A DNA stretch of 64,000 nt from Octopus vulgaris. Taxonomy: Eukaryota. The notes below the pieces were generated by a model. The model was given only the letters and a program-made list of their open reading frames with translations, was not told the DNA's origin and ran no database searches. Positions 330-57,440 of the stretch are shown one piece after another. Where the stretch lies: positions 68,882,001 through 68,946,000 of the forward strand of contig OX597820.1 in the NCBI GenBank assembly GCA_951406725.2, read 5' to 3'. Position numbers and translations under genes: made by a program. Every line of letters starts with the position of its first letter. Position 1 is the stretch's first letter.

Positions 330-890
330 GACATCTCAGCCCTCATTCTTTGATTTCCTTTTCTTCTACTTAACTGTTTCTCCCTCTCTCTCACTCTTCA
401 CTCTCTCTCATTCTTCATGGTTTCCTCACAACCATTCCCCTTTCTTCTTTCCCTTTCTCTTGCTCCTCCTCCTCCTCCCTCCCGTCGTGACCCGCGACGA
501 GAGCTCCGCTACTGTCTTTCTAGCCTGACCTTCTTGAGGTGTGGACGGCAATTTTCTTAGCTCCGTTCGCCGTTCACAGAAATTAGCGTTCGTAATACTT
601 TTTTTCGTTCGGCGTTAACAGCTCTTCTTGTCTTATTATTTTCCTTGTCCTGTCTTTTACTGCTTATATTTTGTACTGTCGTTACTGTCCTGGTTTTGTT
701 ACCATTTTACCTCTCTGCAAAAAGATCTCAAATTTTATTTGATTTGCTTTTCGCAGGAAGGAAAGTTTCTTATCGAAGATACGTCTCGCCTTCACCTTCG
801 AAACGTAGAGTAGATGAAACCATGGCGACTGAAGAAGATGAAGTTAGCCGGGTCACGAAAGATTTGCACTTCGTTTGTGTTTATCACTGA
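330..890 (+). repeat. Non-coding interspersed repeat (family H3) with two degenerate hammerhead-like motifs; homologous to 16357-16640
   Basis: 590-840 aligns by eye to 16360-16635 (TTACTGTCCTG..TTGTTACCA.TTT.ACC..CT.CGCAAAAA..TC.CAAAT.TTATTT.ATTTGCTTT.CG..G.AAGGA...GAGTAGATGAAAC..G..G.C.ACTG..GAAG). Left boundary is approximate. Confidence 0.6.
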
Positions 891-1584
891 CACTGCATTG
901 ATACGGTTATTAACACTGCGGCTATTTTTGTGCATGTGAAATGGAATTTGTTTAGACAGAAAATGATAGTATTGCAAAAATATTCTGCTGTGTGGCAAAT
1001 GTGTCTGTGTGTTTGTTGGCAAATGTAGCCGAACGAGTCAATAAACCAACAAAAATTCTCCGGCTGTGGTTGGTTCAATCCTAAAAACTAAGACACACAC
1101 ACACACGCGTATACACACACATACATATGCACACATTCACTAACATATATATATATATATATATATATATATATATATATATATATATGAGTGGATGTGT
1201 AAAAGCAGTGCATTAGTTGCCTGACAGAAAATCCTGTAATTTGTTCTCAAGAAATAGAAACGTGAAAAATTCTCAACACACTGATTGGTGTATTTTTCAT
1301 TCATATATATTTATTGTCTGTTGATAGCACGCAGTCCAAATTAATTATTAGCAATTTGAACGATTGTTTAAATTCACAAGTCCAACACTCCTAACAAGCC
1401 TTCACCAATTTGTGGATTAAACTACGAACTCAAAAATTTAGTCGTTTATTTAGTGGGTTATATTGAGGACGATCTTGACATGTTATTCCACCTTTAGAGT
1501 TCATGAATACATTCCTTTATTTCAATAACATTTTTGGCTTTGTTAAACGAAGTTAAGGCAAAAAAACTTCTTAATTAATTTATA

Positions 1585-1726
1585 CAGGCTTCTTTCAGTT
1601 ATTGTCTACCAAAATCCATTTTTGGTTTTTCTCCTTCCAGGGTTTTAGAAGTCACTTCCCCAAGGACTGAACCCAAAACCACGTGATTGAGAAACAAACT
1701 TCTTACCACACAGCCACAGCTGCATC
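1585..1726 (-). mobile_element. Degenerate 5' fragment of tRNA-derived SINE family A
   Basis: GGCTTCTTTCAGTT..GTCTACCAAA...CACTT.CCCAAGG...ACTGAACCC...CTTACCACACAGCCAC matches the reverse complement of the family A head at 37848. Confidence 0.7.
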
Positions 1727-1740
1727 TATATATACATATA

Positions 1741-2969
1741 TAAGGGTTGGACAAAATAATGGAAACAACTAGCATCATAGCATCATAATTTTGAAATATC
1801 TATAAAACCACCGACAGCTTGTTTATTTTTAGGTTTTTTTTGTTTTATTATAAGTGTTGCTTAATATGTTTTGCTAAAATTGCTGTTTCTTCTCAGATAT
1901 CATCAGAAAAAATTAAAATTCTTTAAAATGACACATCTATCGGACTTTCAAAGAGGTCAAATTGTTGGTGCGCGTGTGACAGGCGCTAGCGTAACGAAAA
2001 CAGCCGAAATGTTTGGTGTATCAAGAAGAAGCGTATCGAATGTAATGACAGCATTTGAGAAAGAGGGAAAAGCCTCCTCGTCGAACCAAAATTTCTAAAG
2101 GAAACCAAAACTTTCAGATACGGACCGTCGGACTATAGCGCGAATTGTTAGAAAGGATCACAAAAGTACAGCTCTCAAAATTACTGCAGAGCATAATGAC
2201 CACCTCAAGAACCCAGTTTCTGCAAAAAGTGTTCACCGGGAGCTGCACAAAGCCGGATTTCACGGGAGGGCTGCAATCAGAAAACCACTACTTTCAAAAA
2301 CAAACGTTGCAAAGCGTTTAAAGTGGAGTAAAATCCTACATAATTGGTCTCTAGAGCTGTACAAGAATGCTATTCTCTCGGACGAATAATTCTTCACCTT
2401 ATCTCCGACCACCGGCCGAGTATACATGTGGAGATAGCCAAAAAGAAACATTTGACCCAGACTGCCTTCTTCCAACGGTTAAACATGGAGGAGGATCTGT
2501 GATGATCTGGGGCTATATCTTGATAATCCGCCGGACCAATGGTTTCTTTTCATAGCAGAATTAATAGTCCTATGGTTGCGGAAATGTTTCCGGAGGGAAA
2601 CGCAATCTTTCAGTATGATAATTCACCAATTCACACAGCTAAAGTTGTTGCTGAATGGCACGAGGAACATTCTAGTGAAGTTGAACATCTTATCTGGTCA
2701 GCACCGTCCCCAGATCTCAATATTATTGAACATTTATGGTGCACTTTAGAAGAACAAGTAAGGAGTCAATATCCTCCACCATCATCACTACAATACCTGG
2801 AGACTGCTTTAGCTGAAGAATGGACAAAAATTCCTTTGGAAACAATTCAAACTTTGTACGAATCCATACCTCGAAGAATTCAACCTGTAAATGCTGCGAA
2901 AGTCGGTCCCATATTAAAATAAATTTGTTTGAAATTTTAAGGTGTTTCTATTATTTTGTCCAACCCTTG
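1741..2969 (+). mobile_element. Tc1/mariner-superfamily DNA transposon, DD36E (Incomer-like), decayed
   Basis: About 29-bp TIRs: TAAGGGTTGGACAAAATAATGGAAACAAC (1741) versus reverse complement of GGTGTTTCTATTATTTTGTCCAACCCTTG (2941-2969), with TA on both sides. The interior encodes Tc1 transposase motifs. Confidence 0.95.
1928..2922 (+). pseudogene. Tc1-type transposase pseudogene (stops, frameshift, short internal deletion)
   Basis: MTHLSDFQRGQIVGAR..SVTKTAEMFGVSR (HTH), RKPLLSK, SDE, PTVKHGGGSVMIWG, FQYDNSPIH, SPDLNIIEHLW. In-frame TAA at 2096 and later stops. Residues appear missing between RINS and PMV. Confidence 0.92.
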
Positions 2970-3034
2970 TATATATATATATATATATATATATATATAT
3001 ATATATATATATATATATATATACATATATATAT

Positions 3035-3408
3035 ACTCTTACTCTTTTACTCTTTTACTTGTTTCAGCCATCCGACTGCGGCCATGCTGGAGCACCACCT
3101 TTTAGTACTTATTCTATCGGTCTCTTTTTGCCGAACCGCTAAGTGACGGGGACGTAAACACACCGGCATCGGTTGTCAAGCAACGCCAGGGGAACAAACA
3201 CAGACACACAAACACACACACATATACATATATATACATATATACGACAGGCTTCTTTCAGTTTCCGTCTACCAAATCAACTCACAAGGCATTGGTCGAC
3301 CCGGGGCTATAGCAGAAGACACTTGCCCAAGATGCCACGCAGTGGGACTGAACCTGCAACCGTGTGGTTGGTTAGCAAGCTACTTACCACACAGCCACTC
3401 CTGCGCCT
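3035..3408 (-). mobile_element. tRNA-derived SINE family A, near full length
   Basis: Minus strand has an A-box TGGCTGTGTGG, B-box GGTTCAGTCC, CORE-like TTGGGCAAGTGTCTT, an internal microsatellite and the tail GGTGCTCCAGCATGGCCGCAGTC..GAAACAAG(TAAAAGAG)n. Confidence 0.9.
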
Positions 3409-3467
3409 ATATATATATATTTATATATATATATATATATATACATACATATATATATATATATACG

Positions 3468-55620: not shown

Positions 55621-55670
55621 TATATATATATATATATATATATATATATATATATATATATATATATATA

Positions 55671-56390
55671 TACAGTGTACATTTAAAAAAAACAAAAAGG
55701 TACCCATCATAGGGCTACCTACACGCTAGAGAGGACAGTTAAATTCCAAACCACTATTAGGGATAAAATTTCGAATGGAATGAAAAATAAAAACATTTAC
55801 CATCTAACACCTGGACCAATGGTTTCAGACATTTTTTAGCAAATAAAATAATTTGCCAGGCGAAGCCTTCTTCAGCAGGTACACCTTAGATGAAATATAT
55901 ATACACGAGGCAATCCAGTATATGCCCCGTGCTTATACATTCTAAGTTTTCAAATCTACCGCGCAGGCGCAGCTCCCTGTCGACAGTAATTAAATATGCC
56001 GGCTTTTTCATTTCGAAAATTTTCCAAGAAAAAAAATATCAATAATTAATAATATCAAATATTAATTTGAAATATTAGAAATTTCCATTACCAGTGGCCT
56101 AGCGTGTAAAAGTTTAGTCAATAAACTATATATTATTCAAATAAATACAGTGTACAGGAGTTAGATGGCAAATGTTTGTATTTTTCATTCCATTCGAAAT
56201 TTTTCTCTAATAGTGGTTTGGAATTTAACTGTCCTCTCTAGCGTGCAAGTAGTCCTATGATGGACACCTCTTTTGTTTTTAAATGTACACTGTATTTATA
56301 TGAATAATATATAGTCTATTGACTAAATTTTTTACACGCTAGGCCACTGGTAATGGATATTTCTAATATTTCAGATTACCCTTTGATATT
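55671..56390. repeat. Interleaved inverted-repeat element (A-C-B-A'-B'), MITE-like
   Basis: A 55671-55813 pairs with A' 56155-56294. B 56050-56156 pairs with B' 56284-56390. A starts TA-CAGTGTAC and A' ends GTACACTG-TA. Confidence 0.85.
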
Positions 56391-56429
56391 ACATATATAT
56401 ATATATATATATATATATATATGTATATA

Positions 56430-56734
56430 TCACGTGATCACGTGACCGACAAGGCTATCAGATGTTGCTACACATCGCTGGTCACAATGCGTTTCGCATT
56501 GTTTTAGCCTTCAAATGACGCCACCTCGATGGCTAAGCGAGCGGGCCAACAGAAGAAAGAGTGAGAGAAAGTTGAGGCGAAAGAGGACAGCAGGGTTTGC
56601 TATCACCCCCTGCCGGAGCCTCGTGGAGTTTTAGGCCTTTTCGCTCAATAAACACTCACAACGTCCGGTCTCGGAATCGAAATTGCGATGCTACGACAGC
56701 GAGTCCTCTGCCCTAACCACTGGACCTTTGCGCC
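56430..56734 (-). mobile_element. tRNA-derived SINE family C, full length
   Basis: Minus strand GGCGCAAAGGTCCAGTGGTTAGGGCAG (A-box)..TTTCGATTCC (B-box)..tail AACAATGCGAAACGCATTGTGACC..(CACGTGAT)2. Confidence 0.88.
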
Positions 56735-56953
56735 TCTTCTTTTTTTTTTTTCCTCTCCCCCTTTTTTTTAACCCCCCTTTTTTTGTCCTCTTTCTCTCCT
56801 TTTACGATCCCTTTTGATCGAAACTCCCCCCCCTTCCTTTTTTTTTTTTAACCTTCAAAAGAAAAGCTCTACATTGTAATTTGTTCTATCTGTGTGCAGC
56901 CCTGTGTGGCTAATAAAGAAACATATCTATCTATCTATCTATCTATCTATCTA
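56735..56953 (+). mobile_element. Probable LINE 3' UTR stub with AATAAA and a (TATC)n tail
   Basis: Pyrimidine-rich tract, hairpin CAGCC-CTGTGT-GGCTA, AATAAA, then (TATC)n. Confidence 0.4.
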
Positions 56954-57259
56954 TAAACCAAGCAAACTAGCTGGTCAAGGAAATCTCTGTAATAGATGAA
57001 ACTAGTATACATACTGAGCAATAGTATTCAAACCCACTTAAACACGGTTGTTCCCTGTTCCCTAGATACCGATGATACCGCTATATGTATATATTTGAAC
57101 TGCGAGATGATCAATTGTTTGCGATAAATATATTTGTTTTTCACTCGTTTATTACTGTTCTTATCCTAACTCATGTCCACGATTTCACATCAGGAGTCTT
57201 GCAATACAAATTCATAAACGTATATATATATATATATATATATATATATATATATATTC

Positions 57260-57440
57260 TATTATCTCTCACTCTTTCTATTTTATATTTTCTCTCCCTC
57301 TTTACCTCTGTTTTCTTTTCTGTTGAAGAGCGTAGGCTCGAAACATAAAAGACATTCTCATTTCCCGAACGTGAAACTTATACACCTGTTTGTTGTTTAC
57401 ACACCCGTCTTCGTCTTTTGTTTTTTTGTAAATTCTCACT
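57260..57440 (+). repeat. Family H2 repeat with CUGUUGA hammerhead-like motif (57314-57352)
   Basis: UUUU-CUGUUGA-A-GAGC GUAG GCUC-GAAAC-AUA-AAAG, embedded in (TA)n. Confidence 0.75.

Follow-up and report, generated by a model that had tools for sequence, protein, structure and literature searches.

H1, a candidate tRNA-headed SINE with a Penelope-type end, among hammerhead-motif repeats in 64 kb of the Octopus vulgaris genome

Repeat Families in the Window

A microsatellite-rich stretch of 64,000 nucleotides from Octopus vulgaris (GenBank assembly GCA_951406725.2, contig OX597820.1, positions 68,882,001 to 68,946,000 of the forward strand), hereafter the window, carries short non-coding repeats of five families, H1 to H5, some with motifs of the minimal hammerhead ribozyme (min-HHR). 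The subject of this text is these repeats, above all H1, a putative short interspersed element (SINE) whose 3' end resembles that of a Penelope-like element (PLE). The families and their copies were located in the window by masked self-BLAST and per-family nhmmer profiles, which recover 10 insertion loci in total. The original prediction had described H1 to H4 as mutually unrelated; both searches find each of them where it had been placed, and masked self-BLAST finds no cross-family match with E < 1e-4. Of 10 local alignments between pairs of families, the three best have scores that are reached by 1, 2 and 4 of 200 shuffles, and these scores can be explained by common core boxes and T-richness. 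The fifth family, H5 (55672–56391), the transfer RNA (tRNA)-like head of H1, and target-site duplications (TSDs) of 12 and 14 bp are new relative to that prediction.

Inverted copies are present at all three insertions for which they had been claimed (6794, 16140 and 42915). By family, an inverted 5'-truncated copy occurs in 2/2 H1 insertions, in H3 (at 16140) and in H5, and in 0/3 H2 and 0/2 H4 insertions. H2, H3 and H4 all lie in or near microsatellites, with ends about 85–190 nt beyond box 1 of the hammerhead motif. Meanwhile, the claim that no PLE reverse transcriptase or GIY-YIG open reading frame (ORF) is visible held for the frames given to Pfam, namely the 150 longest without low complexity out of 462 stop-to-stop frames of at least 55 aa: none matched either domain, and curated cut-offs were passed by Tc1/mariner remnants only.

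Structure of the H1 Insertions

The first H1 insertion is bounded by an identical 12-mer at 6782–6793 and 7176–7187 (+ strand). Between these TSDs lie an inverted 5' piece (6794–6850, −), the tRNA-like head (6860–6945, +), an (AAT)18 linker from head to body (6946–6999, +) and H1 body a (7001–7175, +; nhmmer 7001–7172), whose tail is 7145–7175. The inverted piece is a copy of the A-box segment of the head joined to a tail-less H1 3' end (nhmmer fragment 6831–6795, E 5e-5), and it forms a 32-bp hairpin with 6860–6891; since it contains the A-box segment itself, head and body were together when the insertion was made. The body carries a minimal type-I hammerhead motif (7052–7097, +) with stem I at 7052–56/7093–97, box 1 at 7057–63, an extra A, stem II, GAAAC at 7085–89 and a predicted cut after GUU at 7092. 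The second insertion is bounded by an identical 14-mer at 42901–42914 and 43323–43336 (+), and contains copy b (42915–43093, −; nhmmer 43093–42916) with its tail present, (AAT)20 (43096–43155, −) with the inversion junction inside this microsatellite, and copy c (43171–43322, +; nhmmer 43172–43322), the inverted partner without the tail, which is 92.6% identical to b. Both TSD pairs are perfect and each encloses a main and an inverted copy; in both insertions, a copy having the last ~30 nt is joined to an opposite-strand copy lacking them.

Family-wide data on H1 come from four public sequencing runs (X1, X2, X23 and X24) aligned to 6991–7600. Among the rows listed, loose ends running into unlike sequence fall at 7151 (96) and 7175 (112) in X1; at 7145 (43), 7151 (65) and 7175 (126) in X2; at 7144 (469), 7145 (345) and 7175 (1414) in X23; and at 7144 (197), 7145 (195) and 7175 (1267) in X24. 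Two 3'-end classes, 7144–7151 and 7175, about 25–30 nt apart, thus occur in 4/4 runs. Summed contig depth over the H1 body is 0.8–4.9 million versus 44–50 on the unique flank 7558–7600, a ratio of about 10^4–10^5. A lower-copy repeat in the flank of the first insertion (7350–7520) has a summed depth of 5000–12000 against the same 44–50. With the majority letters at 7061, 7072 and 7082, box 1 takes its commoner form and all 5 bp of stem II pair; no majority change falls in 7085–7097 among the rows listed. At least half of the H1 words are present in 14/24 public-run rows, from four organisms; two insect-metagenome runs with word shares of 0.05–0.07 were left out of the analysis. An exact 25-nt H1 word had 0 matches in metagenome, viral and prokaryote collections. 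H1 is dispersed, high in copy and flanked by TSDs.

The tRNA-like Head and a Second Locus

The head has an A-box-like part (6863–6872), a 7-nt anticodon-like loop (6899–6905) and a B-box-like part (6920–6929), spaced as in a tRNA except for an insert of 12 nt that is a copy of H1 3'-end sequence (6879–6890). It lies 5' of (AAT)18, and head, linker, body and inverted end are all inside one 12-bp TSD pair. It presumably resembles tRNA-Ile. A regular expression for the two boxes has 7 matches in the window, the head among them, and 5/7 belong to another SINE family. ARAGORN calls no tRNA gene in the window at default settings, and relaxed thresholds give 22 and 159 calls, which are noise.

A second locus was sought by comparing spurious reading frames through H1 with 1.84 billion proteins, and two matches were returned. 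One of them, P0002 (UniParc UPI0006952653, E 1.9e-6), has the order inverted tail, head (B-box part), poly-Asn (the microsatellite) and body; 32/46 columns match 6910–7047, 16/16 match 43087–43040, and a 7-residue run corresponds to the reverse strand of the tail. Since P0002 differs from every H1 copy in the window and has the same order, head, body and inverted end occur together at two loci. The other match, P0001, was discarded as a TPR false match.

Hammerhead Motifs and the Copies of H2, H3 and H4

A strict min-HHR descriptor has three matches in the window (7057+, 9209− and 55875−, in H1, H4 and H5) versus 0.125 ± 0.40, at most 2, in 40 dinucleotide shuffles. If one mismatch is tolerated, there are 10 matches versus 4.0 ± 2.1, at most 9, in shuffles, and the 7 added matches lie outside the families, so only the strict result is counted. 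A two-box pattern has 5 matches versus 1.09 ± 0.94 (100 shuffles), 4/5 of them in H1 and H4, and a two-box match at 25735 (−), with neither stems nor a second copy, was taken as chance. With the Rfam models, no hammerhead or tRNA match is found in the best 150 of 419 matches or in two further scans with 7 and 5 matches, and those listed are microsatellite-driven miRNA models only. Minimum free energy (MFE) and cofold predictions returned no hammerhead folds, and are uninformative for such cores.

The boxes CUGANGA and GAAA stand in type-I order in H1a, in both H4 copies and in H5, and fail to do so in H2, which has U at A6, and in H3. An extra base after A9, G10.1-C11.1, a palindromic stem III and a 4–5 bp stem I are all found in H1a and in part in H4 and in H2 copy c, while in H5 stem III has 3 bp and stem II is weak. 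Although their sequences are unlike, the stems of H1, H2, H4 and H5 pair around the same boxes. As to covariation, there are two or three copies per family, and the H1 majority letters restore pairing without a compensatory change. The hammerhead layout that H1 and H2 had been said to share is whole in H1a, but the core is complete in only 1/3 H1 copies (7052–7097), as copy b (at 43040) has lost U16.1 in register and copy c (at 43227) has lost A13, and box 1 of H2 is non-canonical in 3/3 copies, with GAAAC in 1/3 and a whole core in 0/3. H2 copy a (11115–11278, −, nhmmer) has a decayed core with box 1 at 11233; copy b (33846–34019, +, nhmmer) has box 1 at 33899, a GUA triplet and a 5-bp stem I, with G12 lost; copy c (57260–57440, +; nhmmer 57266–57438) lies within (TA)n and has box 1 at 57320, a 4-bp stem II and GAAAC at 57340. 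In the H2 copies (57320, 33899, 11233), a pyrimidine tract stands immediately 5' of the box 1 that carries U for the conserved A6.

H3 and H4 had both been called degenerate. H4 is better than this, as 2/2 copies, on the − strand, have the two boxes together with a palindromic stem III: copy a (9121–9230) has box 1 at 9209, GAAAC at 9163 and a GUA triplet and gives a descriptor match, and copy b (13025–13145, nhmmer) has box 1 at 13129 and GAAAC at 13058. H3 has box 1, but a second box does not follow it in hammerhead order. At the 16140 insertion, an inverted copy of the 3' end (16200–16352, −; nhmmer 16355–16206; box 1 at 16348; 89% to 16621–16760) adjoins the main copy (16353–16760, +; nhmmer 16561–16753), which lies in (TA)n-like repeats and has a variant box 1 at 16625 followed by a hairpin, and neither copy has a GAAA box downstream. 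The H3-related element at 311–876 (+; nhmmer partial 769–876), with a 24-nt inverted end at 311–334, carries GAAAC (at 800) on the 5' side of box 1 (at 829), and shares with the 16140 insertion only 671–837 (75%) and the 24-nt inverted end. In the H3-related copies 774–835 and 16569–16631 (+), a 5–6 bp hairpin closes directly 5' of box 1, with two compensatory C-G to U-A changes, one possibly CpG decay, and the hairpin at 783 is preceded by GUC and a GAAG box. It is doubtful that this motif is a type-II (permuted) hammerhead with an extra G, which would be unusual in animal repeats and would be represented by two decayed copies.

The H5 Monomer

H5 consists of a non-coding monomer of 485 nt (55672–56156, −) with the same 10 nt at start and end (terminal redundancy), and an inverted partial copy (56152–56391, +). 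Its hammerhead motif (55809–55880, −; a descriptor match) has box 1 at 55875–69, GAAAC at 55826–22, a 3-bp stem III with a 3-nt loop, a predicted cut after GUC at 55814 and a 5-bp stem I, and an alternative hairpin competes with stem II. The + copy begins at the predicted cleavage site and passes from the monomer end into the monomer start, with 92% identity on both sides. Since it spans the unit junction, the unit was once a tandem or a circle, and it is too small to hold an ORF. That the + copy begins at the predicted cut may instead stem from a 6-of-7 microhomology with the monomer end. H5 is a single locus with one hammerhead plus the unit junction, and by its sequence may be described as a non-coding monomer resembling a retrozyme.

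Two copies of a third SINE-like family (55498–55614, 56430–56740, 57851–57968 and 63779–64000), which has a palindromic end at (TA)n, flank H5 in opposite orientation. The GAAAC of this family (at 55498, 56433, 57851 and 63779) is a plain hairpin loop and was rejected as a hammerhead.

Other Repeats

An abundant tRNA-headed SINE family of about 10 copies, unrelated to H1, is found at 3034–3419, 15556–15982, 27292–27723, 37846–38265, 40236–40618 and elsewhere. A second SINE-like family with an internal duplication of about 120 nt lies at 10661–11016, 40898–41255, 50275–50437 and 19305–19436. The inverted pair 45507–45593/46824–46910 (87 bp, 99% identical, 1.2 kb apart), in which no hammerhead boxes were noticed, possibly represents transposon ends. 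Tc1/mariner transposase remnants (HTH and DDE_3 Pfam matches) lie at 1865–2919 and 63002–63223. The frames 18097–18521, 32402–32725 and 60955–61540, which have no Pfam match, are presumably 3' ends of long interspersed elements (LINEs; restriction-like endonuclease, CR1 and L2 types).

Origin and Mobilisation of the Repeats

The features described above make it probable that the repeats are 3' ends and non-coding derivatives of several PLEs, inserted by the PLE reverse transcriptase-endonuclease, with H1 a SINE in which an (AAT)n linker connects a tRNA-like head to a PLE-type end bearing a minimal hammerhead motif. Because the tRNA-like head and the body share one TSD, two 3'-end classes exist and a second locus has the same order, H1 is likely a PLE-mobilised SINE. 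The fuller proposition, that H1 would be a genuine SINE family numbering tens of thousands of copies, with a tRNA promoter fused to a hammerhead-bearing PLE end and a PLE rather than a LINE as its enzyme partner, is evenly poised in our judgement. H2 to H4 are probably truncated PLE ends.

The PLE link is well supported by sequence. For the claim that the elements are PLE-mobilised, the minimal type-I motifs, the inverted 5' copies, the tail on a single copy and the microsatellite targets speak in favour. Non-autonomous status has evidence in H1, with its tRNA-like head, and in H5, with its closed 485-nt monomer; H2, H3 and H4 are indistinguishable from plain 5'-truncated PLE ends. That they are ribozyme elements is unproven, as cores are broken in most copies, H3 fails the motif and no RNA ends occur at the H1 site.

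It has been reported that min-HHRs of metazoan PLEs occur in thousands per genome, singly or on opposite strands 100–700 bp apart, and they are read as truncated PLEs (Cervera and de la Pena 2014, PMC4209133). Like the min-HHRs of PLE pseudo-long terminal repeats (pseudo-LTRs) in that paper, the motifs here are type I, with an unpaired base after A9, G10.1-C11.1, a 4–5 bp helix I and a palindromic 15.2–16.2, and single and opposite-strand copies and several unrelated families per genome recur; the differences are the tRNA-like head of H1, U at A6 in every H2 copy, the altered box order of H3 and the lack of a linked ORF in the window. An arrangement in which one copy has a tail and the partner is inverted has been described for PLEs (Craig 2021, PMC8557442), and the tail has been attributed to a PLE reverse transcriptase that starts at either of two internal sites, in an active PLE without RNA-seq ends at the hammerhead site (Frangieh 2024, PMC11167929). 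The repeats in the window share with these insertions the inverted 5'-truncated copy, the single-end tail, AT-rich or microsatellite targets and the lack of RNA ends at the H1 site, but differ in an H1 tail of about 25–30 nt rather than 30–40, clear 12–14 bp TSDs and no coding sequence.

In addition, H1 can be compared with other short hammerhead repeats and with SINEs. In the Schistosoma repeats SM-alpha and Sj-alpha (via Weinberg 2019, PMC6765202; PMC8490949), which are likewise short, an RNA polymerase III (Pol III) promoter precedes a type-I hammerhead; however, these repeats are tandem, an active ribozyme frees their monomers and a PLE partner is unnamed in the parts of these sources available, whereas H1 has a minimal motif and a PLE-type tail and inversion. 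The head-body-tail composite, the TSDs and the high copy number are those of tRNA-derived SINEs (Kojima 2020, PMC7245038; Matetovici 2016, PMC4758252); the partners named in these two papers are L1, RTE, CR1, L2 and I, and the word Penelope occurs 0 times in the text of either.

With regard to mechanism, Pol III would transcribe the H1 head, and a PLE protein would bind the 3' part of the H1 RNA and nick AT-rich DNA. Reverse transcription may then start at either of two internal sites, 52–59 and 83 nt beyond the hammerhead site, and these two start sites would give one tailed and one tail-less copy, joined in opposite orientation. The H1 hammerhead was likely inherited from a PLE pseudo-LTR; its cleavage would require either a dimer or a helping protein, and the motif is probably dispensable for insertion, as in Frangieh 2024 (PMC11167929). 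H5 might represent a tandem or circular retrozyme-like unit.

Several observations weigh against this account of H1. No autonomous partner PLE was found within the window. The head is present in 1/2 window insertions and in P0002 only, both copies of the 42915 insertion end inside the microsatellite, and the 5' loose ends of the family consist of (AAT/AAC)n alone in the 30 letters displayed. The head goes uncalled by ARAGORN, even without the 12-nt insert and with the threshold at 60%, and is still missed at the relaxed thresholds. Further protein searches with spurious H1 frames gave 0/10, 0/1 and, among 16 candidates, P0002 itself alone. A 9-nt duplication near 7140 in some H1 copies may inflate the 7145–7151 end class, and the summed contig depth given above is no copy number. 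The H1 cleavage triplet is GUU, and the hammerhead fold of H1a (−4.5 kcal/mol) is not the MFE fold (−5.6 kcal/mol).

The RNA evidence is of the same tendency. It consists of about 6% of each of two RNA-seq runs of a related species (organism B), aligned to 6991–7600, a stretch 3' of the head; run X1 has 2 differences in 355 bases of the unique flank and run X2 has 12 letters and 17 gaps in 187, a divergence that marks organism B as a relative rather than the species of the window. H1 RNA depth is 1300–1700 per mate direction, equal both ways, and 88% of aligned H1 reads continue into unlike sequence. Neither the RNA ends expected at the NUH site nor the circular-RNA junctions were seen: read starts or ends are piled up nowhere in the H1 stretch, cleavage site included, and no head-to-tail joint is among the joints listed. 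H1 is thus seen in these runs as a passenger in longer transcripts, a pattern that speaks for neither cleavage nor circles nor a Pol III transcript, though all three are still compatible with the data because strandedness is undefined, the library type loses short RNAs and an active PLE likewise lacks RNA ends at its own site (PMC11167929). In 7001–7175, the differences listed include A>G at 23 and 24 positions in the RNA runs versus 8 and 7 in DNA contigs, and T>C at 21 and 20 versus 15 and 17; the A>G excess is possibly A-to-I editing in double-stranded RNA from inverted pairs, and alleles could mimic it. A 3-base deletion at 7089, in the H1 stem III and cleavage site, is carried by 155/2688 and 127/2039 RNA reads, and an opposite-strand joint 7103/7131 by about 60 reads per run.

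An alternative that we consider rather unlikely is that every family, even H1, consists of 5'-truncated ends of autonomous PLEs, the head being an occasional template-switch chimera, or a SINE whose (AAT)n tail receives PLE ends. The thousands of scattered min-HHRs so read in PMC4209133, the microsatellites favoured by PLEs (PMC8557442) and the several template switches at the 6794 junction are as it would predict; however, it fits poorly with a head, linker, body and inverted end in one 12-bp TSD, with an inverted piece that holds head sequence, with the same order at P0002, and with H5, which closes on itself without space for an ORF.

It is improbable that the families are active retrozymes, which would self-cleave, circularise and spread via circular RNA. 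Retrozymes are known from molluscs and other animals, and animal retrozymes have been argued to be non-autonomous PLE derivatives (Li 2026, bioRxiv 10.64898/2026.07.22.740005). Like non-LTR retrozymes (Cervera 2020, PMC7229834; Li 2026), the repeats here include short non-coding units with type-I hammerheads, and H5 in particular combines a complete core, GUC included, with a terminally redundant monomer of unit length, and its inverted copy begins at the predicted cut, but the microhomology can explain that start. Non-LTR retrozymes form tandem arrays with mostly canonical ribozymes, whereas H1 is dispersed with inverted copies and H5 has one hammerhead, so that two consecutive hammerhead-bearing units occur in no family of the window; H1 also lacks the listed head-to-tail joint and the RNA end pile-up, and 8/9 predicted Xenopus retrozymes failed to cleave (Li 2026). 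That the motifs are chance matches in LINE-mobilised SINEs is very improbable and already largely refuted, since the lack of listed Rfam hammerheads, the mostly broken cores and the failure of H3 are outweighed by the three descriptor matches versus 0.125 expected, by differing stems that still pair in H1, H2, H4 and H5, by the extra A, G10.1-C11.1 and palindromic stem III of the published min-HHR (PMC4209133), and by inverted copies with a tail difference, which are PLE traits.

Significance

The reading of the repeats as PLE ends and derivatives, with H1 as a PLE-mobilised SINE, is therefore preferred here. For the window as a whole, the scattered min-HHRs of Cervera 2014 (PMC4209133) and the non-autonomous PLE derivatives of Li 2026 (bioRxiv 10.64898/2026.07.22.740005) make the claim largely known: the set is of an already known kind, and H1 is its less ordinary part. 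Chlamydomonas and Heliconius have been noted to carry short non-autonomous PLEs. In the Octopus vulgaris genome, PLEs make up 6.83% in 190 families, so that the density of such elements is unremarkable for an octopod host; 893 recently active SINE families are unclassified, and the words hammerhead and ribozyme have 0 occurrences in the text or supplement of the repeat paper on this species. A tRNA SINE with a PLE partner was not found in the literature, a search to which Dfam, Repbase, SINEBase and the Zenodo library of PMC13282606 did not belong, so that an entry for H1, filed under unclassified SINEs or PLEs, may already exist.

SINEs are by definition parasites of LINEs. If the reading of H1 is true, a tRNA-headed dispersed family with a PLE tail and inversion would widen this definition to PLEs and provide a third kind of SINE partner, and standard annotation would misfile such a family; the families other than H1 would be ordinary PLE debris. 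PLE insertion is poorly understood, and H1 would offer a large natural collection of short substrates for mapping the cis needs of the PLE protein. With a substrate of about 320 nt in very many genomic copies, the two start sites, the inversion step and what the hammerhead contributes would become testable.

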